Shown here piece by piece: positions 1,084 to 58,271 of a stretch of DNA of 64,000 nt. Made by a program: the position numbers and the translations under genes. The notes below the pieces were generated by a model, which made no database searches, was not told the origin of the DNA, and saw nothing but the letters and a program-made list of their open reading frames with translations. The stretch lies in contig JAWXBR010000011.1 of NCBI GenBank assembly GCA_034440235.1, forward strand, positions 64,787 to 128,786. The letters are read 5' to 3'. Each line of letters begins with the position of its first letter. The stretch's first letter is position 1. Source of the stretch: a bacterium. Lineage in GTDB: Bacteria; Bacteroidota; Ignavibacteria; Kapaibacteriales; Kapaibacteriaceae.

Positions 1084-1512
1084 ATGAGTGACGGATTACA
1101 TAACTCAACACGCGCACCCGAACCTGTTGGGGCATATCCGCATGCACGGCGTGTTGGAAACCTACTGTTCCTGAGTGGTGTTGGACCACGTCAGCGAGGC
1201 ACGAAACAGATTCCTGGGGTGACGTTAACTGATGATGATGAAATCGAATCGTATGACATCACGGCGCAGACACTAAGTGTGTTTGCAAACGTGAAGGCAA
1301 TTCTCGAGGATGCAGGATCGACGTGGGAGAGTATTGTAGATGTAACAGTGTTTCTAACTGATATGAAACGTGATTTTAACGTTTTCAACAATCTGTATGC
1401 AGCACATTTCGAGCACGTTCAAGCGTGCCGCACAACCATTGAAGTCGGTGCATTGCCAACGCCTATTGCTGTTGAGCTAAAAGTCATCGCTACGATCGGG
1501 ACCCAACCATGA
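1084..1512 (+). CDS. RidA/YjgF/L-PSP family protein (reactive enamine/imine deaminase)
   Basis: 142 aa with typical RidA signature and length. It sits immediately downstream of the ALDH gene. Its stop overlaps the next start (ATGA). Confidence 0.75.
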   Translation: MSDGLHNSTRAPEPVGAYPHARRVGNLLFLSGVGPRQRGTKQIPGVTLTDDDEIESYDITAQTLSVFANVKAILEDAGSTWESIVDVTVFLTDMKRDFNVFNNLYAAHFEHVQACRTTIEVGALPTPIAVELKVIATIGTQP

Positions 1513-21152: not shown

Positions 21153-21250
21153 TGCTATTTGTCGGACTATGCTATTCGTACAGCTCGGCGATTCGTAGCA
21201 CTTGGCTATTCGTCGGCCACAGCTATTCGTCGGCCACAGCTATTCGTATC
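21153..21250. repeat. Direct-repeat cluster of GCTATTCGT-type units, including two perfect tandem copies of GCTATTCGTCGGCCACA
   Basis: Seen in the sequence. It lies intergenic between the permease stop (21240) and the mgtE start, overlapping the permease stop codon. Confidence 0.8.
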
Positions 21251-22487
21251 GGAGTGCTTCGATCGGGTCGAGCGAGGCGGCCTTGTATGCAGGGTAGATG
21301 CCTGAGACGAGGCCTATGACGGTGCATGAAAGCATGCTGAAGACAATGGCGAACCACGGTAGGTCGTAGGGGAGCGATTGAACGCCCGAAGATTTGATGA
21401 CGAACGTAATGATAAGGGTTGCAATGCAGCCAAGAATTACGCCAGCTATGGCGCCGAACTGACCTATTGCAATTCCTTCGATGAGGAATTGCTGTAGAAT
21501 CCATGAGCGGCGTGCACCTAACGCCTTACGGACACCAATCTCGCGCGTTCGCTCTTTTACGCTAACGAGCATCATGTTCATAATGCCAATGCCTGCAACA
21601 AGCAGAGCAATGAGTCCACTCAACCAAGCAAGCGCAGCGATGGCCATCGTAAGATTTCCGAATTGCGCAGAGAGCGCCTCGTTGGTGTCGAGCTCGAAGT
21701 TGTTCTCTTCCCACGGCTTTGCATTACGTAGCATTCGCATGATGCCTATTGCTTCGTCGACTGTGGCAGGTAGGGCATCGCGACTAAATGCTTTTACACT
21801 TACATCTACACTTACGTCCCACCACATGGTGTAGTATTTCACAAAGACGCTGATGGGAATAAGCACGCGGTTGTCCTGACTCTGTCCGAGTAGCCCACCC
21901 TTTTTTTCGAGCACACCAACAACGGTGAATTGCTGATTCTTAATGGTAAGGGTCTTGCCCAAGGGGTCTACGTTCGGAAATAGTTTTACAACGATGTCAT
22001 TTCCGATGATGGCACCGCTGCCGTTCAAAAGCACGTCCTGTTCAGTGAACGGACGTCCCGAGGAAATACCAACGGCGTTCACCGTGAAGTACAATTCGTC
22101 GACACCAATAAGCGACACGTCGGGGTCAGTCGATTGCTCGCCAGCTTTAATGATGAGTCCCGGTGAAGTATTACTAATCGAAATCAGATTCGTGAGTGTC
22201 ATCTTATCACGGAACTCAAGCGACTGTGGATAGGAGATTGGTTTGCGCTTGGCATACTTGCGCCAATTATGTCCGAAGTCTATCGATGGTGTTCGCTGAA
22301 TCAAGAACGAGTGTTCACCAAGGTCTGCTAATTGTGAGCCGAGCGCAGTGTTCAAGACACCAGTAATGCCACTCGATGCAACGATTGCAAACACACCAAT
22401 CGAAACACTTAGCAGTGTGAACACGCTGCGCAGTTTGTGAGCACGCACGGAGTCCCAGGCCATGGTTATCGACTCTGCAATGTTCAT
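21240..22487 (-). CDS. ABC transporter permease, FtsX-like/MacB-type (permease 2)
   Basis: An N-terminal TM helix, a large periplasmic MacB_PCD-like domain, and a C-terminal FtsX 3-TM bundle (...GIAIGQFGAIAG...). Confidence 0.8.
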   Translation of the reverse strand: MNIAESITMAWDSVRAHKLRSVFTLLSVSIGVFAIVASSGITGVLNTALGSQLADLGEHSFLIQRTPSIDFGHNWRKYAKRKPISYPQSLEFRDKMTLTNLISISNTSPGLIIKAGEQSTDPDVSLIGVDELYFTVNAVGISSGRPFTEQDVLLNGSGAIIGNDIVVKLFPNVDPLGKTLTIKNQQFTVVGVLEKKGGLLGQSQDNRVLIPISVFVKYYTMWWDVSVDVSVKAFSRDALPATVDEAIGIMRMLRNAKPWEENNFELDTNEALSAQFGNLTMAIAALAWLSGLIALLVAGIGIMNMMLVSVKERTREIGVRKALGARRSWILQQFLIEGIAIGQFGAIAGVILGCIATLIITFVIKSSGVQSLPYDLPWFAIVFSMLSCTVIGLVSGIYPAYKAASLDPIEALRYE

Positions 22488-23713
22488 TCGGCCCTCAGTG
22501 CTTCTACAGGATCGAGATTCGATGCGCGTATCGCTGGGATGAGTCCGGCCATGAGCCCAACAACCGTTGCAATGGCAATAGCTAGCATAAGAAGATCTAC
22601 CGGAATGAGAGCACTTACAACTGCCAGAACATCAGCGGGCAACATACTACCCGCAACGATATGAAGAATCCATGTCACGAATTGAGAGACAGGTAATGCG
22701 AGCACGGCGGCGGTAACACAAAGCAAGGTCGATTCCATCAGAAATTGCAGACGGATGGAGCCGCGTTTGGCGCCGATGGCCTTACGGACACCAATTTCTT
22801 TGGTACGTTCAGATACGCTAACAAACATGATGTTCGTAAGGTTAATAGAACCTACAATGAACGCAAGCACGGTAAGGCCGAGACCTGCGGCCCAGATCCA
22901 GAAGCGAATTTTTTTCACTTCGTCGTCAAACGCTTTCATCTCGTTTATCGAAAAATCGTTCTCTTTATGTGGAGGTACATTGCGAATGCCACGCATCACA
23001 CCAATTGCTTCTTCTCTCACAATATTCATCATGCGTTCGTTGCCCGCCTTGATGGCAACAGAGAAACTTCGATTGTTAAAACCATAGGCGCTACGAAAGG
23101 CGTAGAGCGGAATGTACACTTGGTTGTCAACAAAGTCCATGAACAACACGCCACGTTTTTCTACAACACCAATCACACGAAATGGTATTCCCTGAATCTT
23201 GAGATTCTTACCGACTGCCGTTTCGGTCGGAAACAACGCTTTCTTGATACCGTGACCAATTACAATAACGTTTGCGGCCTGCTGCTCTTCTATTGGCGTG
23301 AAAAACCTTCCATCCTCTGTTATACCAGCAGGCGTCATTCCGTACGTAGCAGCCGTTCCCATAACTGCAGTTCGCAAAACCTTGTTGCCATAACTAACCG
23401 AACCGCCCCACTTACGTGCAAGGGGAATGACGTATTCGGGAGATTCCATTCTGTAGCGCAGAGACTCGACCTGCTCTAACGAAAGGTCTTTGCGCGCCTC
23501 GGTCTTTCGCCAGTTGCCGCCGCCTGCCCAGTCCCATTTATCGACATACATCATGTCCTTGCCGATAATCGAAATGGTCTGTTCCCAGATGGCATCGAGC
23601 CCCTTAATGGCCCAACCCATTGTAACGACTGCAACAACACCAACAATCATGCTGCCCGTAGTAAGTATAGAACGCAGCATGTTCGATCGCACAGATTCGA
23701 AGGCGAAGCGCAA
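22484..23713 (-). CDS. ABC transporter permease, FtsX-like/MacB-type (permease 1)
   Basis: Same architecture as 21240-22487. Stop and start codons overlap. Confidence 0.8.
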   Translation of the reverse strand: MRFAFESVRSNMLRSILTTGSMIVGVVAVVTMGWAIKGLDAIWEQTISIIGKDMMYVDKWDWAGGGNWRKTEARKDLSLEQVESLRYRMESPEYVIPLARKWGGSVSYGNKVLRTAVMGTAATYGMTPAGITEDGRFFTPIEEQQAANVIVIGHGIKKALFPTETAVGKNLKIQGIPFRVIGVVEKRGVLFMDFVDNQVYIPLYAFRSAYGFNNRSFSVAIKAGNERMMNIVREEAIGVMRGIRNVPPHKENDFSINEMKAFDDEVKKIRFWIWAAGLGLTVLAFIVGSINLTNIMFVSVSERTKEIGVRKAIGAKRGSIRLQFLMESTLLCVTAAVLALPVSQFVTWILHIVAGSMLPADVLAVVSALIPVDLLMLAIAIATVVGLMAGLIPAIRASNLDPVEALRAE

Positions 23714-23736
23714 CGACTCTATGATAGACGTGCGGT

Positions 23737-24486
23737 TCAGGGTACAAGACCGGATTGGTCGCTTGGTGCTAAGCGCAAGAGGTCGGTTGGTACGAGACCC
23801 GCGTGTTCGTTTGGTGTATCGCTTTCGATGAGTCCGTCACGCAATCGGATAATGCGATGGGTGTGTCGGGCGACGTCTTCTTCGTGTGTAACGATGATGA
23901 CGGTATTGCCGCTCTGCCACAACTCGCGAAAGAGTTGCATGATCTCTTGTCCCGTCTTCGAGTCGAGATTTCCCGTTGGCTCATCTGCAAGAATAATCGA
24001 TGGCTTCGTTACCAATGCGCGGGCGATGGCAACGCGCTGACGTTGTCCGCCAGAAAGTTCGTTCGGCTTATGTGTAACTCTATCTGCAAGCCCAACACTG
24101 CGCAACGCCTCTTGTGCACGCTCCTTGCGTACAGAGCTGCTTACGCCTGCGTACACGAGCGGAAGCTCGACATTTTTTAGCGCCGTTGCTCGCGGTAGAA
24201 GATTAAACGTCTGAAATACAAAACCGATTTCCTTGTTACGGATTTCAGCCAGGTCGTCGTCCTTCATCTCGCTTACATTGTTGCCACTAAAAAAATACTC
24301 GCCGCTTGTGGGTGTATCGAGGCAGCCGATCATGTTCATGAGGGTTGATTTTCCGGAACCGGACGGACCCATCAAGGCGACGTATTCATTTTGACCGATG
24401 GTGAGAGAAACGTTGCGCAATGCATGCACGGTTTCCTCGCCCATTACATAGGTCTTCGCAAGATTGCGGATGTCAATAATCGTCAC
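23737..24486 (-). CDS. ABC transporter ATP-binding protein (MacB/LolD-type ATPase)
   Basis: Walker A ([12 protein letters not shown]), the ABC signature ([15 protein letters not shown]) and Walker B ([12 protein letters not shown]) are all present. Confidence 0.9.
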
Positions 24487-25793
24487 GGTGTTGCCCGCAT
24501 CTTGTTAAATCGGTCGCGACGATTCTTTTGGTCTTCGATACGTATGACAGAACCGTTCTGAAGGCTCTTGCTTACAGCATTAAACGGAGCCGTAACAATA
24601 GACTCGCCCCCTTTTAGCCCCTTAACAATTTCTATGTAGCCTTGGTCGCTTATGCCTGTTTCTACGGTGCGCGACTGAACCTTCGTGCCGTTTACAATCC
24701 ACACAATCGACGGTGGCCGTTTGCTCTCTTCATCCTTGCGTTGCTCGGCCTTGCGACGGTCTTTTGGTTCCGATTCCGATGGGTTGAGGGTCTCGGTTTG
24801 CATAACATCCTGACGTACCGTTACTGCTTGAATAGGAACAGAAAGCACATCTGATTTTGTTTCGGTTTCGATGTCTACGTCGCAGGACATACCCGGACGC
24901 ATGCGAAAGTCTTTGTCGATCATGCGAATGCGAACCTGAAAGTTCACGACTTCTTCTTGCGAGCCTTGTCCACTTATCCGGGGCGAATGACTCACTTCGT
25001 AAACTATTCCACGAAATGATTTATCGCGCAATGCATCGATATGAATGCGTGCTGTATCGCCAACCTGTATAACAGCGACATCGTTTTCGTCGACGTCAAC
25101 CCATGCATTCATGGTATTCAGATCGGAGATGCGCAAGAGTTCGGTGCCTTGCATCTGTGCTGTTCCAACAACTTTCTCACCGCTTTCGACAGCGAGGTAT
25201 GTAACAACGCCACTAATCGGAGAAAAAATTGTCGAGCGACTTGCCTGTTGTTGCGACTGCTGCAGACCACCAATCGATCGTTGATAGTCGGCCTGTGCTT
25301 GAGCCTGACGTGATACTGCTGTTAAGTAGGCTGCGTTTGCTCGATCGTACTCTTCGCGTGTGGCAAAGTCTTTCTTCACGAGTTCATTCACGCGCGATAA
25401 GTCGGCCTTTGTCCTATCAACTTCAGCTCTGTACATAGTAATGGCCTGACGTGCCGATTCTGCGGCGCTGCGAGACTGTCCGACCTGCGATTCGAGCAGG
25501 TCTGGCTGTATACGCACCAGTAGCTGTCCCTTGCGCACTGTATCGCCGTCACGCACACCTAAATGAATGATTTCGCCCGAGGCTTCAGAGGAAACTTTCA
25601 CCATGAATTCTGGCTGAAGCTTGCCTATGGCGCTTACGGTCTGCGTAATCGTGCGGCGTTCGACGTTGTCTACGCTCACGAGTAACGGACCTTCCTTGCT
25701 GAGCATGACAAACCATGCAACTGCCGACACAACAAGTGCGGCAACAACAAGCAATACGATAATGAGTACGCGTCTAGATTTTTTCTTTGCCAT
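24483..25793 (-). CDS. Periplasmic adaptor subunit of the ABC efflux system (HlyD/MacA family)
   Basis: An N-terminal TM anchor, a coiled-coil hairpin and a beta-barrel/MP domain typical of the membrane fusion protein family. Confidence 0.8.
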
Positions 25794-25797
25794 GATT

Positions 25798-27150
25798 TCA
25801 GAGCTCCGTTAACGTTCCGAGAGTTGCGTCTACAACAGTGCGGGCTTCGAGGTACGTATAGATTGCAGTTACGCGATTAATGCGCGCCGTTACGAGTTGG
25901 TTGTTAGCTGCTTGAACGTCGAGTAGTGTTGCACTGCCCACATTAAATCGTTCTTGCGTGGCTTCAGCGTTTATCTGTGCAGTCTTTAGCGCATACTGCG
26001 CGATTTCGGTTCCACGTTCAGCGTACTCGAGCTGCACGTATGCGGTGCGCATGTCACGACGCAGTTGCTGCTTCAGTCGCTCTACGTCGACGAGTGCTTG
26101 CGTGCGATTAAGGATTTGATTTTCGATTGCAAGGTTTGTGCGAAACTGATCGAACAAGGGAATGTTGAGGTTCAGGCCAGCATAAATGCGGCCTCGTGTA
26201 TCGAAATCGCGTACCTCGACATTATTCCATGCGTATGCGACCGTGCCAGACAGTCTTGGATAGTAGGCACTACGTGCAGCACGTATAGACGCTTCTGTAG
26301 ATTTCACGCGCAAATCGGCTGAGCGTAGGTCAGGCCTTACGTCGAATGCGCGCACGAGTGCTTGTTCTTCTGTGCCGATGCGTTGACGATAAAGGTCGAT
26401 TTCTGCTGTCGTCACCGATGATGCAACAGAACTCTCTGCAAACTCAGCATCGATGCTTGCATCTTCGCCGATGGTTGATAGCAGTTGCGACTTCGTGCGA
26501 ACAACATCCATTTGCGCCTGCAGAATGCTCACCTCCATGTTCGCAAGCTCTGTCTCTTGCGAATACTTCGCTGTAATTGGTGAACGTCCTGCATCGTACT
26601 GTGCGACAACGCGTGCGAGTGTTGCCTTCGATAGATCCGCAGCTTCACGTCGTGTTTTCACAATCTGTTGCGCCTGGAGCACGGCGAAGTATTGCCTCGA
26701 TACAGTCGAGACCACGTTCAAGCGTGCTGTGCGTAGATCGCGATCGGAGACGTCGACACCAAGACGCGCTTCGTCGTAATTGGCTTCTCGGCGAAAACCA
26801 TCGAACAGAAGCCAATTAATTCCGGCGGACAACTGATACGAGTTTGGCTGGGGCTCACCTTCGATGAGCGTTCCGTTCACAAACACAAACTGCGACTGAA
26901 GATTTGTGAGCTGGCGTTGATACCCAGCGTTAATCTCCGCCGAAGGCAGGTAGCTGCCAAAGGCTGCTGTGAGGCCTGCAGCCGAGGCCCGAGCTCGCGC
27001 ATTGGCAAGGCGAACATCGAGATTTTTCTCTAGTGCAATTCTAATGCACTCTTCTAACGTGTACAGCGTAACGGGTCCGCGTTTTTGCGCAACCATAGGC
27101 ATACACAGCACAACAAGTAAAACGAGGGGTAGGTAACGTCGCATGATCAT
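25798..27150 (-). CDS. TolC-family outer membrane efflux protein
   Basis: Signal peptide plus the duplicated OEP helix/strand repeat architecture. 450 aa. Confidence 0.8.
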   Translation of the reverse strand: MIMRRYLPLVLLVVLCMPMVAQKRGPVTLYTLEECIRIALEKNLDVRLANARARASAAGLTAAFGSYLPSAEINAGYQRQLTNLQSQFVFVNGTLIEGEPQPNSYQLSAGINWLLFDGFRREANYDEARLGVDVSDRDLRTARLNVVSTVSRQYFAVLQAQQIVKTRREAADLSKATLARVVAQYDAGRSPITAKYSQETELANMEVSILQAQMDVVRTKSQLLSTIGEDASIDAEFAESSVASSVTTAEIDLYRQRIGTEEQALVRAFDVRPDLRSADLRVKSTEASIRAARSAYYPRLSGTVAYAWNNVEVRDFDTRGRIYAGLNLNIPLFDQFRTNLAIENQILNRTQALVDVERLKQQLRRDMRTAYVQLEYAERGTEIAQYALKTAQINAEATQERFNVGSATLLDVQAANNQLVTARINRVTAIYTYLEARTVVDATLGTLTEL

Positions 27151-27158
27151 CCGAAAAA

Positions 27159-28076
27159 CTAGTTGTGTCGGCGAGCTAACAGGAAACGACGTGCTGGATT
27201 CGCCGATCGCAATTCAAGCAATTGCGCATCAACTGCTGTCTTTTGGGTCGCATCACGTTTGATCCCATTCTTAGTTTCAATTTCCAACTTGTTTTCTGTT
27301 GTTGCAAAAACATGGTACGGCACGCTCACCAGATCGTCGAACGAAAGCTTACCGTAGGCGTTGATTGTTGCATACGTCACCATGGACATCCCATCCGTAG
27401 CCACCTTGTGGCTGCCCCTTGCCGTCATCGAATACTGTAACTGACGAAATGCACGTCCGACGGTGTCCACCTTATCGAGTACTCTCCAGAGAGTGAGGTG
27501 ACCAATGACGGCTGGCGGTATGCCGTTTTCTGTCAGTTCAACCGTGTCTTCGGCTATCCAGCTCTGATTCTGTCGCCCGCAAGACTCTCCTAAAGGGGGC
27601 AGAAGAAAGGGGCTGAACGGACCTCCTGGGTGTATGGCAATGACATCTGGGAGTGTTACAGCTGCGTATGAGCGCTTGCCCACAGTGTCCATTACAAACG
27701 TCACCACACGGTCGACCCAAGGATGTGTTGGCCGCTCGACCGTTGTATCAACGGTGCCCTGACGTTCAACCGACGACGTCATAATCTGACGAAGCCAGAA
27801 TGTCGAAGTCGTTGCACTATCGCATATCACAAGTACTCTCGACTTACGAAGTTTGAGAATACGTCCCTGACCCTGCACCCATAAACTGTCGCGCGCATCG
27901 ATATCATAAACAAGTGTATCACCTGTTTCGAACTTATAGGCAAAACACAAGGTGTCCTTCCCGAGTGGGGCAGGTTGATAACCTTCTTGAAGTTGAATCT
28001 GTGCACTAACAGGTACACAGAGGAGCAGAGCCATCCAGAGTACTGCGGTGCGTGCAATAGCCTGAGGCTGAGTCAT
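27159..28076 (-). CDS. Secreted protein of unknown function (305 aa) inside the efflux operon
   Basis: Signal peptide (...LLLCVPVSAQ). No recognisable family. It overlaps the upstream ORF by 1 nt. Confidence 0.5.
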   Translation of the reverse strand: MTQPQAIARTAVLWMALLLCVPVSAQIQLQEGYQPAPLGKDTLCFAYKFETGDTLVYDIDARDSLWVQGQGRILKLRKSRVLVICDSATTSTFWLRQIMTSSVERQGTVDTTVERPTHPWVDRVVTFVMDTVGKRSYAAVTLPDVIAIHPGGPFSPFLLPPLGESCGRQNQSWIAEDTVELTENGIPPAVIGHLTLWRVLDKVDTVGRAFRQLQYSMTARGSHKVATDGMSMVTYATINAYGKLSFDDLVSVPYHVFATTENKLEIETKNGIKRDATQKTAVDAQLLELRSANPARRFLLARRHN

Positions 28077-30793
28077 CAGGGGATACGATTGTATGTTGTA
28101 CGTACTTCGGTGCGAGACGGAATGACGTTCTGCTCAGGACCCTGCAGCGTAATGCGCATGTTCATAATTGTCTTGATATCTGCAGACAATGGCATACCAG
28201 TCTGCGCATCAACAAGGTATGTGCCTTCGAGTGTACCAGAACCCGAGAGGTCGATAGGGCTGCCGTGTTTGCGCATCTCGCCATTCAGCGACACGTCTGG
28301 TGATGCTACGGTAAGTCGCACAAGTTTACGGTTGTTTGAGTCGAGCGATTCTGCATACGTACAGTTCATGGTCAACGTTGTAATAAGAATGCCTTTTTTC
28401 AAATCGAGGTCTTGCGTATCGCGAATCTCCGATGTCCAAGTATCACCCTTCGATGTTTTACCTACGTCGTATGGCGGAAATAAGAGCCTCAAGCCATTGA
28501 TAACGCCACCACTCATGCTCGTGGTTAGCGAGCCTGAGTTGGTACTTGCATCGTCGTAAAGACGTTCTGTTCCCAGTATGGCGCCCGTCGACGTCATTGT
28601 AAGCCTGTCCTTTGTTGAGATGAGGTCGGTCGTAGGAATGGCATTGGTTTCGATCATAGCCTCGTCAACACCATTCGAAGACATGTGCATATAAGCAGTG
28701 TCGTACGAAACGTCAAGCGTATACTGCTTAAGCACAGCTTCTTTTACCTTGACATGTGTGATAGTTCTGAAGTTGGATGTTGTCGCAATCTCTTTGTTCA
28801 TCGCCGTTATCTTCTGCATCACACGAGTGTTTGTTGCATAGTCATACGTCGTGGCGGGCTTCAGTCGGTACTGAAGTTGTCCGTGGGCTGACATCGACAC
28901 AACGGCCATTAAAAAAGGCACAAGCAGAGCAATGATTGTACGAACGGGTGACGCATCTGCGGCTTCACGTTTTTTGGCGCGCTGACGCATTGTCGAGTCG
29001 AGAATTTTTTTGCGTAAACGAATATTGAGCGGTGTGACTTCGAGCAGTTCATCGTCTTCGAGGAACTCTATGCTTTGTTCGAGCGACAACTGACGTGGTG
29101 TATCGAGTTTTACAATACCGTCAGACCCCGAAGCACGCATGTTTGTGAGCGCCTTCATCCTGCAAGCATTTACGCTCAGATCGTCCTCGCGCGCATTTTC
29201 ACCGATAATCATGCCTTCATAGATAGCAATGCCGGGTCCGACAAACAACGAGCCCCGCTCCTGCACCATTTCAAGTGCGTACGGTGTCGACGTGCCGGTT
29301 TCCATAGACACAAGAGCGCCCTTGGCGCGACCACCGATTGGACCCTTGTATTTTTCCCATGCGTGGAATGTGTGGTGCAGGACACCCGTACCGCGCGTTG
29401 ATGTAAGGAACTCTGTACGGAAACCAATGAGACCACGAGCAGGGACAAGGAATTCGCAACGGATGACGTCGAGCGATGGGTTCATCGCAGTCATTTCGCC
29501 CTTGCGCTTCCCAAGGTTCTCAATAACGGTACCAACATTGGCCTCGGGCACGTCGATGGTAACGTGTTCGATAGGCTCGAGCAGTTTGCCATCAGCATCG
29601 CGACGGAAGAGAACTTCCGGACGTGATACAGCGAACTCAAAACCTTCACGACGCATGGTTTCAATAAGAATAGCAAGCTGCAACTCGCCACGTCCAGAGA
29701 CCTTGAACACGTCTGCAGAATCGGTGTCCTCTACGCGCAGCGATACGTTCATGCGTAGCTCGCGATAGAGGCGCTCACGAAGCTTTGGTGTCGTAACAAA
29801 CTTGCCTTCACGTCCAGCCAGCGGCGAAGTATTCACAAGGAAGTACATCGCAATCGTAGGCTCTTCGATATCTACGTACATCAACGGTTCGGTGATGGAC
29901 GTGTCGCAGATCGTTTCGCCGATGTACACGTTTTCAAATCCAGAAAGGGCAATGATGTCGCCCGCCCCTGCCTGTGGTGTCTCGATGCGTGCAATGCCTT
30001 CGTACACATACATCTTTGTAACGCGAGCCGTTTCGCGCTTCCCGTCCGGCTTAATCAGAGCAACGTTGTCGCCAACCTTGAGCTGTCCGGTCTGAATGCG
30101 GCCAACAGCAATACGACCAACGTAATCGCTCCACTCCAACGCGCTAATCACCATCGCAAACGGAGCATCATCGTCCACCGTCGGTGGAGGTATAAATTTC
30201 ATTACTGCATCGAGCAAGGGCTCGAGTGTTTCGGAAGGGTCGTCAAGGGTCTTCTTTGCAATGCCGAGTTTTCCGATTGCATAGATAATCGGAAAGTCGA
30301 GCTGCTCGTACGTTGCACCGAGACCGATAAACAATTCCATGATTTCGTCGAGCACTTCTGCCGGACGTGCATCGCTACGATCGATCTTGTTAATCACCAC
30401 AATTGGTGCAAGCCCCATCTCCAGCGCCTTACGCAACACAAAGCGTGTTTGAGGCAACGGACCTTCGGCGGCGTCGACCAACAGCAATACCCCGTCGACC
30501 ATCGAGAGCACCCGCTCTACCTCGCCACCAAAGTCAGAGTGACCAGGTGTGTCGAGGATGTTGATCTTAGTGTCGCGCCAATGAACGGAAGCGTTCTTGG
30601 CCATGATCGTAATGCCTTTTTCTCTTTCGAGATCGTTCGAATCCATCACACGTTCGGCAACAACTTGGTTGTCGCGGAACGTTCCACTTTGGCGCAGCAT
30701 GTGATCTACAAGCGTTGTTTTGCCGTGATCCACATGCGCAATGATTGCAATGTTTCGGATGTCAGTTCTTGTTCTGGATGCCATAGCCGACAA
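28076..30793 (-). CDS. typA: Translational GTPase TypA/BipA (aa 1-610) continuing in-frame without a stop into a 295-aa domain. That domain starts with a Met-less signal-peptide-like segment and has unknown function.
   Basis: The TypA portion has G1-G5 motifs ([19 protein letters not shown]) and ends ...[27 protein letters not shown] at about 28964. Downstream, the same frame encodes ...[23 protein letters not shown] plus a roughly 270-aa hydrophilic domain. There is no in-frame ATG before the hydrophobic segment. Confidence 0.7.
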
Positions 30794-30891
30794 AGATACG
30801 GAAGCGGCGCCGGAGGGGGTGCTGGAGGACTCGAATTGTTAGTATATTCATGCTCTAGCATTCATTGTTACCATACTATTACGGAGGTCGC

Positions 30892-31440
30892 ATGAGACTC
30901 TGGTCTAAATACTCCTTGATTGCCCTTTTAACGGTAATCAGCTCTAGCGCAGGTATTGCAGGCGAGTGGCACGCAAGTGTCACAGGTAAATCTCAGGGGA
31001 AGTTTCCTGGTGCTGCAAAAGGATCGCCCCACGCAGGAAAAATTCCTGTACTCACTTTCGATTATGAACTCAAGGCGCCCCGTGATATTGCTACTGGTCA
31101 AACTACAGGCAAGCGTCAGCATAAGCCAATCCGTATCATCAAGGAATGGGATGCTACAACGCCAATGTTTCTAACTGGTATTGTGAACGGTGAGACCTTG
31201 ACCGAGGTTGTTCTGGAGTACTGGGAAGAGGATGATTCTGGTGAAAAGGTTATGACGTTCAAAATCACATTAACCGACTGTCTAGTAACGACCGCTGCAC
31301 AAGGAGATCCTGTTCATGGTGTCGATGTAAAACTCGGCGCCAAGATGCAGGAGATCATTGAAATGACATACAGCACATTAGATTTCGAGCACTTGCAATC
31401 AAAGAAGACAATTCGTGACGCATGGCCTACGGGAAGGTGA
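30892..31440 (+). CDS. Hcp1-family (T6SS tube protein-like) fold protein with an N-terminal Sec signal peptide
   Basis: Signal peptide (MRLWSKYSLIALLTVISSSAGIAGE). After it, the sequence aligns motif-by-motif with Hcp: HAGKIPVLTFDY, GKRQHKPIRIIKEWDATTPMFLTGIVNGE, VMTFKITLTDCLVTT. Confidence 0.6.
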   Translation: MRLWSKYSLIALLTVISSSAGIAGEWHASVTGKSQGKFPGAAKGSPHAGKIPVLTFDYELKAPRDIATGQTTGKRQHKPIRIIKEWDATTPMFLTGIVNGETLTEVVLEYWEEDDSGEKVMTFKITLTDCLVTTAAQGDPVHGVDVKLGAKMQEIIEMTYSTLDFEHLQSKKTIRDAWPTGR

Positions 31441-31444
31441 TATC

Positions 31445-32215
31445 ATGAAAACACTTCTGACAAAACTCGTTGCAGTCGCTTTCGTCTTAATTGTTTCGAT
31501 TCCTGCTGCGGCCCAAGACTCGCTTGATGTGATTGTTCTGCAAGGTGTCTTAATGACTGCCAATGGTACGCCACGTCCCGATGGCAATTACTCAATCTCA
31601 GTCAGCCTGTTTGACGTACCAAACGGCGGATCGCCGATTAGTACGGTCACGAACGTTTCCGTCAAACAAGAGTTCGGCGCCTTTGCGGCCGAACTAAGCA
31701 GAGCTATTGTGTGGCCGCATATGCATCAACTAGGCAAGAGAACAATCGATCCGAAAATGTCTCTATGGTGGAGTGTCTCAATTGACGGCGCAGAACTGAA
31801 GCCGCGATTGCGCATTGCAGCTGTACCGTTGGCATCAACGGCCCGCTACGCCGAAAAAAGTGCTGGTGAGATTCCAGTTGGTAGCATCATACCTTTCGCG
31901 GGTGATACATCAGCTATGCCGAGCGGATGGCTAGTGTGCGATGGAAATCTTGTGAGCGCTGTTGAGTATCCGAGTCTCGCCATGGTCATCGGAACTCGCT
32001 ATAATGACGATGGTGGCGAAGCCGCAGAGATGTTTCGGCTGCCCGATTTACGTGGAATGGTTGTAGTCGGAATGGGCACAAATAGACTAGGTGATCCGGT
32101 TGTTCTCGATGCGCCTAGTTTACCCGCTCAAGGTAATGCGAGCAGAGCAAGCCAGCGCAACGTAAATGCTGGGCTTCCTCAGATCGAATTGCTCTACATC
32201 ATTCGTGCGTGGTAA
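31445..32215 (+). CDS. Phage tail-collar fibre domain protein (MdpB / microcystin-dependent-protein-like) with a signal peptide
   Basis: Signal peptide, then the canonical tail-collar motif GSIIPFAGDTSAMPSGWLVCDGNLVSAVEYPSLAMVIGTRYNDDGG...FRLPDLRGMVVVGMG. The start lies 4 nt after the stop of the Hcp-like gene. Confidence 0.7.
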   Translation: MKTLLTKLVAVAFVLIVSIPAAAQDSLDVIVLQGVLMTANGTPRPDGNYSISVSLFDVPNGGSPISTVTNVSVKQEFGAFAAELSRAIVWPHMHQLGKRTIDPKMSLWWSVSIDGAELKPRLRIAAVPLASTARYAEKSAGEIPVGSIIPFAGDTSAMPSGWLVCDGNLVSAVEYPSLAMVIGTRYNDDGGEAAEMFRLPDLRGMVVVGMGTNRLGDPVVLDAPSLPAQGNASRASQRNVNAGLPQIELLYIIRAW

Positions 32216-32217
32216 AC

Positions 32218-32703
32218 ATGCGTTACCTACTGCTCCTACTCCTGGTTACAAGCACATCCGTTTCCGTTTGCGCTCAATCTGCGGCGAGGCTCGGTCACGC
32301 ATCTACAGATTCGCTCATGGCAGCGGGCGAAATGCGTGCGCGCATCGTAGTCAGTGGCTCCGTGACTGGGCTGCGAACAAGTGAGTCGACAGCCTGGTTT
32401 GGCTTTCTTCCTCTCGGTGGCTTTACGCCTGCTTCGGTATTCGAAGAAGCGTTGTCGTTGCAACTCCATGCAACTCCTACTCCAGCCACCGATGTGTTGC
32501 GAATTACGCTGCCCACAGTGTTGCAAAGTCAGTCTACCAGATGGCGGCTTCTCGATGTAAAAGGACTCGAAGTGCTACGGTCAGATGCGCTGATTACAAA
32601 CGATTTTACGATCGATGTTACTGCGTTGGCAACTGGAACGTACAGTTTGGTCGTTGAATGTCGTGGATTGCGAGCATTCGCACGAGTGGTCGTGCTTCAC
32701 TAG
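32218..32703 (+). CDS. Small secreted protein with T9SS C-terminal sorting domain (about 160 aa)
   Basis: Signal peptide (MRYLLLLLLVTSTSVSVCAQS). The C-terminal roughly 75 aa fit the T9SS CTD pattern (...RLLDVKGLEVLR...LATGTYSLVVE...ARVVVLH). The start overlaps the upstream stop. Confidence 0.55.
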   Translation: MRYLLLLLLVTSTSVSVCAQSAARLGHASTDSLMAAGEMRARIVVSGSVTGLRTSESTAWFGFLPLGGFTPASVFEEALSLQLHATPTPATDVLRITLPTVLQSQSTRWRLLDVKGLEVLRSDALITNDFTIDVTALATGTYSLVVECRGLRAFARVVVLH

Positions 32704-32732
32704 CGGTTCTCGTCATTCGTTAACAGAATTTA

Positions 32733-52737: not shown

Positions 52738-53856
52738 ATGACACGAAAACGCATTGTTCGCTGGACGATAATTATTGCTGTGCTCATTGCTGCCATCGTA
52801 GTGCTGAGGCTGGTTACGAGCAACAAGGACGGTGCCCAAGGTGGCGCGGGCGGCGCTTCAAAAGGACCTCCTGGGGGAGGCCCTTCTGGAGGAGGACCTT
52901 CAGGCGCACCACTGAAAGTTTCTGCAGTGGTTATCACCCCAAGCCCTTTTTCCGAGACCCTTTCCCTAACAGGATCGATAATGGCGAATGAGCGCATCGA
53001 GGTACGGAGCGAAGTGGGCGGACGTATTACGCGCATCGGATTTCAGGAAGGGGCGCGAGTACGCAAGGGGCAAGTGCTTATACAGATGGACGATGCGGAA
53101 TTGCGCGCGCGGTTCTCAAAACTCGGACGTCAGCTTGTGCTCGATACAGACAAACAGAAACGTTATGAGGCGTTAAAAAAAATCGACGGGGTGAGTCAGG
53201 AAGAACTCGATGTAATTGACGCGCAGGTCGACATCCGCCGCGCAGAAATCGAAGAGCTGCAGGCGCAAATGGCGAAGACATTAATACGTGCTGCGTTTTC
53301 GGGTCGCGCCGGACTTCGTGAAGTGAGTGTAGGCGCAGTGATAACACAATCGACGCTCATTACGACACTTGCCGACGACAACACATTAAAACTCGAGTAC
53401 ACAATTCCTGAGCGGTATGCAGCAGGCATTCGTGTTGGTGATAGGGTTACGTTTACTGTACGCGGACGTGGTGTAGACGAGCAACAAGTGGCAACGATCT
53501 ACGCTCTCGAACCCGGTGTCGACGCTGCATCACGCGCAGTACGCGTGCGTGCGCGCATTGCACACGGAAAGTCGGATGCTGCAATGATTCCGGGAATGTT
53601 TGCCGACGTAAAACTTACACTGTCGAATGTCAACGATGCACTCATGGTGCCTGCAGAAGCAGTGGTGCAGGACATGGAAGGAGCATCGGTACTTATTGTG
53701 CGCAACGGAAAGGTGCAGCCAACCAAGATTGAATTGGGCGGACGCACTCCGTCGCATGTGCGCGTTACAAGTGGCGTACATGCTGGCGACACCGTGCTTA
53801 CAAGCGGCTTGTTGATGGTCAAGAAAAACATGCCGGTGAATGCGGAGGTCCGTTGA
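52738..53856 (+). CDS. Efflux RND transporter periplasmic adaptor subunit (AcrA/MexA family)
   Basis: A TM anchor, a Gly/Pro-rich spacer, and the lipoyl, beta-barrel and MP domains of RND membrane fusion proteins. Confidence 0.8.
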   Translation: MTRKRIVRWTIIIAVLIAAIVVLRLVTSNKDGAQGGAGGASKGPPGGGPSGGGPSGAPLKVSAVVITPSPFSETLSLTGSIMANERIEVRSEVGGRITRIGFQEGARVRKGQVLIQMDDAELRARFSKLGRQLVLDTDKQKRYEALKKIDGVSQEELDVIDAQVDIRRAEIEELQAQMAKTLIRAAFSGRAGLREVSVGAVITQSTLITTLADDNTLKLEYTIPERYAAGIRVGDRVTFTVRGRGVDEQQVATIYALEPGVDAASRAVRVRARIAHGKSDAAMIPGMFADVKLTLSNVNDALMVPAEAVVQDMEGASVLIVRNGKVQPTKIELGGRTPSHVRVTSGVHAGDTVLTSGLLMVKKNMPVNAEVR

Positions 53857-56800
53857 ACCTCAGCACCCTCACCATCCACCGTCCCGTACTCAGCATCGTG
53901 CTGAGTACGCTTATCGTTCTGCTCGGTGTTGTTGGCTATCTGTTTCTCGGCGTTCGACAATTCCCGAACGTCGACCCGCCGAATATTTCCGTTACTACTA
54001 CCTACCCGGGTGCAAACGCAGACGTTATAGAGTCGCAGATAACACTTGTGCTCGAAGAATCGATTAACGGCATCGATGGTATTCGTTCGCTCACGTCGCA
54101 GTCATCGGACGGACGTTCTACTATAACAGTTGAATTTCAACTAGGTGAAGATCTAGAAGCCGCAGCGAACGATGTACGCGACCGCGTAGAACGTTCGAAA
54201 CGTAATCTGCCTCCTGATGTAGACCCGCCTGTAGTTGCGAAGGCCGATGCAAACAGCTTTATCATCGTAATGACTGTGCAGAGCGATGTGCGTCCGTTAA
54301 ACGCTCTCAGCGACTTCGCTGCAAACGTCCTGAAGGACCGCATGCAGACCATTGAAGGTGTAGGCAACATCATGATCTGGGGTGAACGCAAGTATGCCAT
54401 GCGCCTCGTGCTCGACCCGTCGAAGCTTGCGTCGTACCGCCTCACCACGACCGATGTGCGTCAGTCTTTACAACGCGAGAACGTCGATCTGCCAGCGGGA
54501 CGCCTCGAGGGCACGTCCACAGAGCTTTCCGTCCGAACGATCGGACGCATGTCGTCCGTCGAGGAATTCTCGAACCTCATCCTCCGCTCTGGCGCTGGCT
54601 CGACCGTGCGTGTACGCGACGTCGCACGTGTGTATCTCGGCGCAGAAAACGAACGCACCATTCTTAAACGCGATGGTGTTGCAATGGCCGGACTTGCCGT
54701 CACACCGCAACCCGGCGCAAATCAGGTTGACATTGCAGATGAATTCTATCGTCGGTACGAAGCGTTAAAGCAAACAGCACCCAAGGACATCACACTCGAC
54801 ATAGCGTTCGATAACACAAAGTTTATTCGTCGCGCAATTCTCGAAGTCGAAGAGACTCTTGCCATTGCGTTTGGACTTGTTGTCCTCATCATCTTCCTCT
54901 TTCTTCGATCGTGGCGCGCAACCATCATTCCCGTTGTTGCAATTCCTGTCTCGTTAATCTCCACGTTCTTCTTCATGTGGGTGTGTGGCTTCTCGATTAA
55001 CATTCTTACGCTGCTGGGCATTGTGCTAGCTACCGGACTTGTTGTAGACGATGCCATTGTTGTAATGGAAAACATTTTCCGTCGCATCGAAGAAGGCGAG
55101 TCACCCATGGAAGCGGGCGAGAAGGGGGCTTCGGAGATTTACTTCGCCGTTATCTCTACAACCATTACGCTTGCAGTTGTGTTTATTCCGGTGATTTTTC
55201 TGCCAGGTCTGACTGGACGTCTCTTCAGAGAATTTGGCGTTGTTGTAGCAACATCGGTTCTTGTATCTGCATTCGTTTCGTTAACACTCACTCCCATGAT
55301 GAGTGTTAAGCTACTGCGTCACACAGAAAAACAATCGTGGCTCATGCGAGTTACAGAACCCTTTTTCGTGTGGATGAACAGCACATACGCACGCACGCTT
55401 TCGTCGCTCATAAAGCGCCCCATCATTGCAGTACTTGCAATGGTCGCTTCGATTGTGCTTACGATTGTTATTGGCTCGCAACTAAAAAGCGAACTCGCTC
55501 CACTCGAAGACCGCAGCCTTTTGACAATTAATCTTACGGCACCAGAGGGCACGGGCTTCAATCGCATGGATGTCATCATTGACACGATGCAGGCACGCGT
55601 CTCGCGTGCTGTACCCGAGAAGGCATTGCTTCTGACCGTTACGTCACCTTCGTTCCAATCGAATGCGAGCAACACTGGCTTCGGACGCCTCGCACTTGTA
55701 GACCCAGACCAGCGCACACGCACACAAACGCAGATTGCACAAGCCATTGGCAAGGTAATGTCCACCAACACCGATGTACGTACGGCAATCATTCCCGAGC
55801 AAACGGTATCGACGGGCGGACGTGCGGGACAGCCCGTGCAGTTTGTGATTATGGCGAGTCAGCTTTCAGAGTTACGCGAAGTGTTGCCTGCCTTTATGGA
55901 TCGTGCCATGAAGCACTCGTCACTTGCAATGGCAGACGTCAATCTGAAATTCACAAAACCAGAACTCACTGTTAGTATCGATCGTGCACGTGCGCGCGAA
56001 CTCGGAGTTTCGGTGCTTGACATTGCAGATGCCATGCAGGCTGGACTTGCCGGACAGCGTTATGGATTTTTTGTCCGTGCAGGAAAACAATACCAGGTCA
56101 TCGGCGAATTCCAACGTGACTTGCGAAACACCCCAGACCGGTTGCGCGACCTACAAGTGCGCTCACAAGACGGCAGTATGATTTCGCTTGGTAGTCTTGT
56201 TACGCTCAAAGAACAAAGCACACCTCCGCAGTTATTCCGATTTAATCGCTCGGTTGCGGCTACGGTGTCCGCCGGACTTCCTCCGGGCAAAACCATTGGT
56301 GATGGTGTAAAGGCTATGCAAGAAATCGCAGCAGAGACATTGCCTTCGCACTACACTACTGCACTTACGGGCCCAGCCCGCGACTTCTCCGAAAGCTCCT
56401 CAAGCCTCGTCTACGCCTTCCTCATTGCACTTGCATTTGTGTACCTCATCCTTGCCGCACAATTCGAAAGTTTTGTAGATCCGTTTACAATCATGTTCAC
56501 CGTGCCCCTTGCGCTAGCCGGTGGAGTGCTCTCGTTATGGATCGGCGGCGAGACCCTTAACATCTTCTCGGAGATTGGTGCAATTGTGTTAATCGGACTC
56601 GTCACGAAAAACGGAATTCTTATTGTCGAGTTTGCGAACCAGAGGCGCGAAGCCGGACTCTCTGTCGTCGACGCTGCGCTCGACTCCGCATCAACCCGAT
56701 TTCGTCCGATCCTCATGACCTCCCTCGCCATGATCCTCGGCGCCTTACCCATCGCACTCTCCCTCGGCGCAGCATCTGGCAGTCGTGTCGGGTTAGGGGT

Positions 56801-58271
56801 CGTAATTGTAGGGGGCTTGCTTCTGGCTACATTCCTAACGCTGTACGTCATCCCCACGGTGTATGTGCTCATGTCGAAGCTCAAGCGCAAGAAAACACAC
56901 ACCCACGAATCAGCGGCAACAACACCAGATCCTGGTACACCAGGTGTTTCAGATTCTGCAATCAGTCGTGCAATAATAATTTTAGTTACAATAGGTGCTT
57001 TGCTGTTCGCGCCTACTTCGAGTGCGCAAGAAATTCTCAGTATGGATGATGCCGTTGGCATATCGATACAGCGCAACTACAGCATCCGCACGGCACGGCT
57101 AGACTCTTCGTCCGCCGCTCTCATGCAGGGTTCGCAGTACGCTCCATTTCTGCCAACGCTCAACCTAAATGCAACGGGTGCCCGTGGAAGCAACGACCTC
57201 TCGCAAAAGACTGTGTCGGGTGTTAATACAGAGCGCACAGGCGTTGGCTTTACGAACTTTAATGCAAATGCAACGCTGTCATGGACCGTTTTCGATGGCC
57301 TGAGCATGTTCGCCGAGAGAGACAGAGTAAACAGTCAGTCGCGTGCCGAATACGAACGTGTCCGTAGCAGAATGTCCTTCACCGTCGCCGACGTCATCAG
57401 TTCCTACGGCGCAATCGTCGCTACTCGCAGATCTATCGAACGCGCAACCACCACGCTCGACATCGCAGAACGTCGGTTCCAAATTCTTTCGCGCAGTCGC
57501 GATGCGGGTGCTGTTGCCGGCACCGACGTGTCGCAAGCAGAGATCGACCGCAACACCATACAAGCAATGCTCGTGCGCTCGCGTACCGACCTTGCAACAA
57601 CGTCGACATCCCTTAACGCAATGCTCGGAAGACAGTCCAGGCAGCCCCTTGCCATAGACACTGCGTTCGTTGTTCCCTCATTGCCATTGCTCGATTCACT
57701 CGAACGTGCTGCAGATGCACGCAACCCCGAAGTGCTCGCTGCAGAGCGTGACATCGAAGTTGCATCGGCATCGGTCCGTATGGCAGATGCTGCCTACATG
57801 CCCCGCGTAGCACTTAATGGTCAGTACCAATACACCAACAACAACACCGACGCCGGCTTCATTCTCGAGAACCGCACAAACGGTTGGAATGTAGGCTTCA
57901 CCGGAACGTGGAATTTGTTTAACGGCTTTTCAGACAAGTATCGTTCAGACGTTGCACGCGTCGACCTCGAAAGCAAACGCCTAACACTCGACGACATGCG
58001 TCTGCAAACACGCGCACGGTTAAGTCAGGCATACGCACGTTACGAGCAAGGCATAACACTGCAAACCCTCGAACGTGCCTCATTTATAGCCGCACAACGC
58101 AACGCAGAGGTCGCGCTCGAGAAACTTCGTCTTGGCACCATCCGCGACATCGAAGTACGTCAGACCCAGCTCACATTATTCGAAATAGGGGAGCGCCTCG
58201 CGCGCATCGAATACGAAACCCTCGTCGCAGCCACAGAAGCCATGCGATTGAGCGGGGCATTAGTTAGGTAA
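53853..58271 (+). CDS. RND efflux permease (AcrB/HAE1-like, about aa 1-1030) continuing in-frame, without a stop, into a TolC-like outer-membrane factor domain of about 430 aa preceded by a Met-less signal-peptide-like segment
   Basis: AcrB N-terminus (MNLSTLTIHRPVLSIVLS...) with 12 TM helices and two porter domains. After ...LMSKLKRKKTHTHESAATTPDPGTPGVSDSAIS comes RAIIILVTIGALLFAPTSSAQE, then OMF-type helix/strand repeats to the end. Confidence 0.7.
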   Translation: MNLSTLTIHRPVLSIVLSTLIVLLGVVGYLFLGVRQFPNVDPPNISVTTTYPGANADVIESQITLVLEESINGIDGIRSLTSQSSDGRSTITVEFQLGEDLEAAANDVRDRVERSKRNLPPDVDPPVVAKADANSFIIVMTVQSDVRPLNALSDFAANVLKDRMQTIEGVGNIMIWGERKYAMRLVLDPSKLASYRLTTTDVRQSLQRENVDLPAGRLEGTSTELSVRTIGRMSSVEEFSNLILRSGAGSTVRVRDVARVYLGAENERTILKRDGVAMAGLAVTPQPGANQVDIADEFYRRYEALKQTAPKDITLDIAFDNTKFIRRAILEVEETLAIAFGLVVLIIFLFLRSWRATIIPVVAIPVSLISTFFFMWVCGFSINILTLLGIVLATGLVVDDAIVVMENIFRRIEEGESPMEAGEKGASEIYFAVISTTITLAVVFIPVIFLPGLTGRLFREFGVVVATSVLVSAFVSLTLTPMMSVKLLRHTEKQSWLMRVTEPFFVWMNSTYARTLSSLIKRPIIAVLAMVASIVLTIVIGSQLKSELAPLEDRSLLTINLTAPEGTGFNRMDVIIDTMQARVSRAVPEKALLLTVTSPSFQSNASNTGFGRLALVDPDQRTRTQTQIAQAIGKVMSTNTDVRTAIIPEQTVSTGGRAGQPVQFVIMASQLSELREVLPAFMDRAMKHSSLAMADVNLKFTKPELTVSIDRARARELGVSVLDIADAMQAGLAGQRYGFFVRAGKQYQVIGEFQRDLRNTPDRLRDLQVRSQDGSMISLGSLVTLKEQSTPPQLFRFNRSVAATVSAGLPPGKTIGDGVKAMQEIAAETLPSHYTTALTGPARDFSESSSSLVYAFLIALAFVYLILAAQFESFVDPFTIMFTVPLALAGGVLSLWIGGETLNIFSEIGAIVLIGLVTKNGILIVEFANQRREAGLSVVDAALDSASTRFRPILMTSLAMILGALPIALSLGAASGSRVGLGVVIVGGLLLATFLTLYVIPTVYVLMSKLKRKKTHTHESAATTPDPGTPGVSDSAISRAIIILVTIGALLFAPTSSAQEILSMDDAVGISIQRNYSIRTARLDSSSAALMQGSQYAPFLPTLNLNATGARGSNDLSQKTVSGVNTERTGVGFTNFNANATLSWTVFDGLSMFAERDRVNSQSRAEYERVRSRMSFTVADVISSYGAIVATRRSIERATTTLDIAERRFQILSRSRDAGAVAGTDVSQAEIDRNTIQAMLVRSRTDLATTSTSLNAMLGRQSRQPLAIDTAFVVPSLPLLDSLERAADARNPEVLAAERDIEVASASVRMADAAYMPRVALNGQYQYTNNNTDAGFILENRTNGWNVGFTGTWNLFNGFSDKYRSDVARVDLESKRLTLDDMRLQTRARLSQAYARYEQGITLQTLERASFIAAQRNAEVALEKLRLGTIRDIEVRQTQLTLFEIGERLARIEYETLVAATEAMRLSGALVR

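Follow-up and report, generated by a model that had tools for sequence, protein, structure and literature searches.

A TypA/BipA GTPase fused in frame to a signal-peptide-like segment and a DUF6263-like domain in a Kapaibacteriaceae lineage

The typA locus of a Kapaibacteriaceae genome raises the question of how a cytoplasmic translation factor could come to share one polypeptide with a protein of a secreted family. TypA/BipA is a soluble GTPase that binds the ribosome and is conserved universally. In a 64,000-nucleotide stretch of the assembly GCA_034440235.1 (contig JAWXBR010000011.1, positions 64,787–128,786; termed here the window, at its full length), the typA reading frame continues past its usual end into what resembles a signal peptide and then into a further domain. 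On the comparisons described below, this fusion is real, conserved, derived and fixed in its lineage. The reading that we favor, with a probability of roughly one half, is that the fused product is a precursor in which the hydrophobic segment would act as an internal Sec signal, the downstream domain would be exported and released by signal peptidase I, and TypA would keep a short C-terminal stub.

A single frame from TypA/BipA into a secreted-type domain

The fused open reading frame (ORF) lies at 28076..30793 on the minus strand, as do all features of this locus and its downstream operon. In the ORF listing it opens with TTG at 30793 and closes with TGA (28078–28076), which gives 905 residues; the ATG at 30784 is the likelier start and gives 902 (residue numbers follow the 905-residue form throughout, unless the 902-residue form is stated). 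The frame encodes, in order, a complete TypA/BipA, a linker of four residues, a signal-peptide-like segment without an initiator methionine (V617–G638) and an all-beta, DUF6263-like domain of 267 residues. A sequence-only reading of this DNA had proposed a single ORF running from TypA into an exported domain, a TypA portion that is complete and ends normally, and a downstream part that starts with a Met-less signal peptide. These three points stand: there is one 905-residue ORF with no stop at the junction, the TypA portion is whole by Pfam, TIGR01394 and structural alignment, and the segment aligns with the signal peptides of homologous proteins, minus their initiator Met.

The TypA/BipA moiety (28958..30784, ending with Ala612 at 28960–28958) has the full five-domain architecture. 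Pfam domains GTP_EFTU (PF00009), D2 (PF03144), EFG_C (PF00679) and BipA_C (PF21018) are placed at residues 11–599, and the NCBIfam model TypA_BipA (TIGR01394) scores 908.8 bits, against an equivalog cut-off of 757.3, over residues 9–602 of the 902-residue form. Alignment with Escherichia coli BipA (5a9v, 607 residues) is end to end, its residues 5–603 matching residues 9–606 of the 902-residue form (12–609 in the 905-residue numbering). Because the TypA domains, the TIGR01394 score and the 5a9v alignment span the whole moiety, it is complete and ends at the normal TypA position. The GTPase G-motifs, including NKID, are intact, and ribosome-dependent GTPase activity is predicted. Whereas TypA proteins end shortly after a basic tail, at about 600–615 residues, the tail in the window (RQRAKKRE...) is followed by no stop; 293 further codons lie past Ala612, and the linker, the signal-like segment and the beta domain amount to about 295 extra residues. 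By these features, only its end sets the GTPase part apart from an authentic TypA/BipA.

The mature downstream domain, Q639–P905 (28079..28879), begins with QLQYRLKP. Its score against DUF6263 (PF19777), 22.2–23.4 bits, is under the gathering threshold of 26.7; as 37 of 60 aligned homologues match DUF6263 at E<=0.01 (best 1.5e-13), the domain is classed by sequence as a divergent member of this family of secreted proteins. A confident AlphaFold2 model (pLDDT 89), built from the 60-sequence alignment, places the signal segment in an N-terminal helix, after which come long antiparallel strands. In a Foldseek comparison of this model with the PDB, the only meaningful overlaps were with lipovitellin (TM-score 0.47), the ApoB-100 barrel (0.43) and mycobacterial LmcA (0.38–0.41), which are large open lipid-binding beta structures; porin matches had TM-scores of about 0.2 and a root-mean-square deviation of about 20 Å.

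Conservation and origin of the join

The join is genuine. When public metagenome contigs were scanned with the C-terminal domain, one relative emerged, L081 (ENA ORBV01017378), assembled by SPAdes from the metagenome of a microbial mat; its ORF is likewise fused, in the same architecture, and likewise 905 codons long. At the junction the two sequences are about 75–80% identical in nucleotides, with no stop in L081 and no gaps across residues 500–750. Because the same stop-less, start-less, in-frame join is present in two sequences so different at the junction, the fusion is no sequencing or assembly artefact.

The homopolymer runs near the junction, A7 (29011–29005) and A6 (28975–28970), had been singled out from the sequence as a plausible site of slippage or sequencing error, since a shifted frame would read AKKT followed by TGA. 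The runs are there, and a −1 shift at A6 does reach this TGA in the window; slippage, whether programmed or in transcription, might restore a typA stop in this way, as might an error of sequencing or assembly. L081, however, reads AAG AAG at both sites, has no homopolymer or slippery heptamer nearby and keeps the same 905-residue frame, so the suspicion is not borne out: the runs occur in the window only and are neither conserved nor causal. Moreover, restoring the typA stop would still leave the downstream frame without a start codon, the lone out-of-frame ATG near the junction being absent from L081, and no terminator, promoter or Rfam element was found at the junction. Error or slippage is therefore highly improbable as an explanation of this locus.

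That out-of-frame ATG (28954..28956, in the context g ATG CGT CAC CC) opens an ORF of only 15 codons and is judged coincidental. It was also considered as the true start of the domain gene in combination with a 1-nucleotide indel, as MRHP joined to VRTII would resemble MRGRSII of the unfused relative L001 described below; this candidate was rejected, because the indel would extend TypA by about 40 residues in another frame and L081 has no such ATG.

Selection was estimated by the Nei–Gojobori method from the window and L081. The ratio of nonsynonymous to synonymous divergence (dN/dS) is 0.023 for TypA residues 1–500 (dS 0.31), 0.19 for the linker and signal segment (residues 613–638) and 0.11 for the mature domain (residues 639–905; dS about 1.8); for TypA residues 501–612, the proportions of nonsynonymous and synonymous differences (pN and pS) are 0.035 and 0.75, the latter saturated. 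Synonymous sites are saturated from residue 500 onward. Seven differences fall in residues 617–639, all of them conservative (T/A, I/L, V/A, M/L, S/T, H/Q and Q/N), six inside the signal segment and one, Q639N, at position +1 of the predicted mature protein. Since dN/dS is low throughout, both halves and the hydrophobic connector are, by these substitution patterns, expressed and constrained by purifying selection, and the join is old relative to synonymous saturation. A decaying locus, in which the fusion has inactivated typA, the downstream gene or both while another copy does the work, is barely credible in this light: such copies might lie outside the window, but dN/dS values of 0.023 and 0.11 are maintained across saturated synonymous divergence, neither sequence has frameshifts or stops, and all the G-motifs and domains are intact.

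Identity between the window and L081 is uneven along the locus. It is 99–100% 5' of typA, about 93% in the first two-thirds of typA, about 80% at the typA 3' end and about 70% in the domain and the next gene; within window positions 27014–33048, the 99–100% stretch runs from 33048 to about 30720. This mosaic suggests that recombination has broken the sequence within typA, or that the assembly, of low coverage (4.3x), is chimeric. The near-identity just 5' of typA points to closely related populations that exchanged DNA; the window and L081 are two lineages of one clade and not two origins of the fusion.

The ancestral arrangement is seen in four relatives, namely an Ignavibacteria metagenome-assembled genome (MAG; L001), a Melioribacter MAG (L002), a Logan contig (L082, with domain protein P0002) and an ENA contig (L084, with P0001), whose TypA proteins are 81–82% identical to that of the window. 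In all four, typA stops two to five codons past KKREAA (KKRAES in L082), and the domain is encoded by a separate gene of 280–299 residues, initiated at ATG and carrying a classical signal peptide; the spacers between the two genes are 5, 16, 56 and 35 nucleotides long. The listed ORF of L002 opens at a GTG two codons 5' of its ATG. These positional orthologues are 27–31% identical to the fused domain and share the predicted mature N-terminus Q-x-LQY-L-P, as in the L082 protein (MHRTIILIATLGVTTLSASA↓QVFLQYQLRP; the arrow marks predicted cleavage here and below), and P616-V617-R-T-I-I of the window aligns with M-H-R-T-I-I of L082. The standalone proteins thus resemble the fused domain in position, mature N-terminus and downstream operon, whereas their own ATG and the spacer of 5–56 nucleotides after the typA stop are both gone in the window. 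Where these relatives have the last TypA codons, stop, spacer and ATG, the window has only the four linker codons (D-A-S-P, 28946..28957; E-G-S-P in L081).

Database searches agree with this polarity. The informative search was an exhaustive one with HMMER, over 1.84 billion representative proteins (a word-indexed protein search gave no match to the domain and one to the family profile); it retrieved 108 domain homologues of 177–344 residues, matching from near their N-termini, and all are standalone, none being joined to TypA. Each of the 39 N-termini displayed begins with Met and a signal peptide aligned with V617–G638 of the window. Because the relatives keep the stop, spacer and ATG and all 108 homologues are standalone, the fusion is derived and lineage-specific. 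In the simplest history, one in-frame deletion, perhaps with later substitutions, would have taken out everything from the final codons of typA to the ATG of the downstream gene, stop and spacer included, and joined both genes in frame.

Separate, ATG-initiated domain genes in related genomes had been expected beforehand to count against the fusion. Their presence in four relatives shows that the fusion is derived; it does not make the fusion false, as the closest relative keeps it under purifying selection. The architecture had also been called unprecedented, and so it appears: no fused relative was found in the databases searched, and neither these databases nor the literature on DUF6263 and on TypA extensions or transmembrane segments yielded a TypA/BipA with an export signal and a periplasmic domain. 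The exact 905- and 902-residue products matched no record when looked up, which places the genome of the window outside the protein collection consulted. One further protein, P0089 (89 residues; L086, ENA ERZ28573534), is 67% identical over its last 36 residues to the end of the fused domain, whereas some 53 residues at its start show no relationship. Either its start was called wrongly or the clade may have here a third member; its 629-bp contig ends before the typA junction.

Proposed export and cleavage, and the possible fate of TypA

As typA has no stop, every translation of typA runs on into the hydrophobic segment and the domain. The segment (28880..28945) is the only strongly hydrophobic stretch in the fused ORF and comprises a hydrophobic (h-) region, T619–M634, and a C-terminal (c-) region, A-H-G, with predicted cleavage by signal peptidase I before Q639. 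The N-terminal signal peptides of 59 homologues line up with it column by column, and the Kyte–Doolittle (KD-12) value of the segment, 2.96, is within the range of homologues (family signal-peptide median 2.69). A net charge of +3 just before the core fits an orientation with the N-terminus in the cytoplasm. The c-region, AHG↓Q in the window and AQG↓N in L081, matches the −3/−1 rule and the sites of homologues (ASA↓Q, AHA↓Q and SQG↓Q). The features of a Sec signal cleaved by signal peptidase I, namely a basic N-terminal (n-) region, an h-region of 10–16 residues and small residues at −3 and −1, are all present, and export and cleavage are predicted; the segment departs from such signals in its place, as 616 residues of TypA and linker precede it where an initiator Met would stand.

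The precursor reading is favored because the segment is signal-peptide-like rather than transmembrane-like, is preceded by the +3 charge and ends in a −3/−1 cleavage motif. In this scheme the basic TypA tail (RQRAKKRE...R) would supply the positive n-region, and the 16-residue hydrophobic core, as an internal Sec signal, would direct the C-terminal domain to export. Cleavage by signal peptidase I would follow at the conserved A-x-G↓Q/N site; conservation of this site argues for the separation of TypA and the domain after export. Of the two products, one would be the mature periplasmic protein, with its normal N-terminus, that has a gene of its own in the relatives, and the other would be TypA bearing a C-terminal linker and signal-peptide stub of about 26 residues, marginally hydrophobic. 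The stub might serve as a transient membrane tether, or be removed or extracted, for example by signal-peptide peptidases, which could free TypA. Proteases of the RseP/SppA type normally dispose of leftover signal peptides (PMC8144685).

An uncleaved product was weighed against this scheme. A stable bitopic protein, with TypA anchored in the inner membrane, the beta domain in the periplasm and the ribosome GTPase coupled to the downstream MacB-type envelope system, would agree with the continuous and conserved ORF, with the charge distribution (N-in/C-out) and with the association of typA with the operon in six lineages. The segment is short, however, and contains Pro, and its best 19-residue sum on a simple, position-independent Hessa scale is +2.5 kcal/mol, as compared with −1.4 to −2.5 for the transmembrane helices of a resistance-nodulation-division (RND) pump encoded in the same window; a stable single-pass anchor would have at least about 19 residues and a favorable insertion energy, and the segment has neither. 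In addition, the small −3/−1 residues are conserved as in the cleaved signal peptides of the family, and the domain is a free protein in 108 of 108 homologues. Lasting anchorage of TypA is thus rather doubtful.

Internal initiation, the strongest competitor of the precursor scheme, offers a different route to the exported protein. The ATG of Met602 (28988..28990), within the TypA tail, is the only canonical in-frame start 5' of the hydrophobic core, no ATG, GTG or TTG being found in frame from there (28990) to GTG625 (28921), that is, at codons 603–624. Initiation at Met602 would supply an n-region that is plausible and basic, if long, and would yield a precursor of the exported protein with the cleavage site ...AHG↓Q, the read-through fusion being a tolerated or degraded by-product. 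Met602 is kept in both fused sequences, and the lack of a Shine-Dalgarno (SD) sequence is not decisive, as SD use appears weak in this genome. Its presence is uninformative, however, because it is ancestral to TypA, occurring also in the unfused L001, L002 and L084 (Ala in L082). Synonymous sites 5' of Met602 vary freely between the window and L081, and neither a consistent peak of RNA accessibility nor a conserved SD-like sequence was found there; for the junction as a whole, the search for a conserved SD, promoter, terminator, RNA element or open RNA site was likewise negative. Moreover, the read-through fusion would still arise, as typA lacks a stop. We therefore consider internal initiation unlikely, while giving it some weight. 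The non-canonical starts ATC620, ATT621, CTG623, GTG625 and ATG629 were also tried and rejected, being positionally unconserved or leaving too short an h-region without an n-region.

Known systems provide partial parallels to the precursor scheme. Bradyrhizobium FbcH (cytochrome b-c1) is made as a precursor polyprotein, which signal peptidase divides at a signal sequence within it. It resembles the fused ORF in having one ORF, an internal signal peptide and two mature proteins placed on opposite sides of or within the membrane; it differs in that its upstream part is an integral membrane protein, whereas that of the window is a soluble ribosome-binding GTPase and cleavage there is predicted only. 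Bitopic regulators such as FecR and RseA, with a cytoplasmic N-domain, one transmembrane segment and a periplasmic C-domain, are processed by site-1 proteases and RseP (PMC8144685). They share with the fused ORF the N-in/C-out topology and suggest a plausible route to release of the cytoplasmic part, but they are not homologous to it, and regulated proteolysis is not indicated for the fused ORF. Neither parallel has a soluble ribosome factor as its upstream partner, and in this the fused ORF differs from both.

Some considerations weigh against the precursor reading. Export and cleavage behind a folded cytoplasmic domain of 616 residues are inferred from sequence only. A membrane-proximal stub would begin about 18 residues past the BipA C-terminal domain of a TypA that is under very strong constraint, and might interfere with ribosome binding. 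The conserved Met602 could supply a separate start, and a second typA may exist elsewhere in the genome, beyond the 64-kb window. Finally, the fusion is carried by only two sequences, both environmental and, with 99–100% identity just 5' of typA, not fully independent.

The fusion might also be functional and not merely tolerated, such that the C-terminal internal signal peptide brings TypA to the inner membrane and keeps it there at least for a time, while TypA and a lipid-binding-like periplasmic protein belonging to a MacB/TolC-type envelope system are produced at a strict ratio of 1:1. We regard this as a speculative and rather improbable extension; if true, it would mean a membrane-localized pool of a GTPase of ribosome assembly and stress, and a bacterial case in which a soluble cytoplasmic enzyme and a periplasmic protein are cut from one precursor by signal peptidase.

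The locus is in effect a natural experiment: across a deep synonymous divergence, selection has preserved a signal peptide that follows a cytoplasmic enzyme of 600 residues, along with the proteins on either side of it. From this locus one could learn whether internal signals of this type are handled in vivo by bacterial Sec and signal peptidase and whether a translational GTPase tolerates membrane tethering, which bears on where and how TypA/BipA acts. It could also reveal by what route neighboring genes with little space between them become permanently joined through loss of a stop. For annotation it is a warning, as such ORFs are easily written off as frameshift errors or silently split.

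The downstream operon and other features of the window

The gene that follows the fused ORF (27159..28076) encodes a secreted protein of 305 residues, and its ATG overlaps the fused stop (TGATG); stop/start coupling of this kind is common to all the relatives. A faint resemblance of this protein to the fused domain, noticed from the sequence, is confirmed at the profile level (HHalign 96.9%, E 2e-10, 230 columns), so that it is regarded as a distant paralogue. The domain and the gene of about 305 residues form a pair of very distant tandem paralogues between typA and a MacB/HlyD/outer membrane factor (OMF) system in six of six lineages examined. In the window, the genes of this system, assigned by Pfam, span 21240..27150 past the next gene and encode an OMF/TolC-like protein (25798–27150), a HlyD-type adaptor (24483–25793), an ATP-binding cassette (ABC) ATPase (23737–24486) and two MacB/FtsX-type permeases (22484–23713 and 21240–22487). 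The downstream order, namely domain gene, gene of about 305 residues, OMF, HlyD-type adaptor and MacB-type ABC system, is identical in L001, L002, L082 and L084. One may reasonably guess, but no more than guess, that the domain serves the MacB/TolC-type system in the periplasm as an accessory that handles lipids or lipoproteins.

The window has another fusion built on this plan, which counts in favor of the precursor scheme and of a general mechanism. The ORF at 53853..58271 on the plus strand (1472 residues) combines an AcrB-type RND pump (residues 4–1007) with OEP domains extending up to residue 1468; at its junction (about 56895–57030), a Pro/Thr-rich linker is followed by a Met-less signal peptide, SAISRAIIILVTIGALLFAPTSSAQ↓E, and then by the OMF/TolC-like part. 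A partial JGI protein, P0109 (ACR_tran and OEP), is 41% identical and shows the same continuity, with an internal Met kept before the signal peptide, while the closest other OMFs (P0110–P0113) are standalone. The likeness of the TypA fusion to this RND–OMF pattern, also pointed out in the sequence-only reading, is thus genuine: a cytoplasmic C-terminus runs in frame into a Met-less signal peptide and an exported partner. The gene families differ, however, and the upstream part of the RND–OMF ORF is already a membrane protein. Two fusions of one design in 64 kb suggest that the phenomenon may be under-recognized in this clade.

The remaining large ORFs of the window are ordinary-looking, and no Rfam family reached its gathering score across positions 1–64000. 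SD-like motifs lie 5' of only a minority of the long ORFs. Divergently from typA, the region 30865–32703 (plus strand) encodes three small secreted-looking proteins: one is Hcp-like (T6SS_HCP) and has a hydrophobic leader at its N-terminus, a signal peptide on an Hcp fold being unusual; another carries a phage tail-collar domain; and the third has a C-terminal sorting domain of the type IX secretion system (T9SS). A 1597-residue protein with HYDIN/ASH-type Ig-like domains (1509–6302, plus strand) also ends in a T9SS C-terminal sorting domain, and this protein together with the other Por_Secre_tail protein points to a T9SS-bearing organism of the FCB group.

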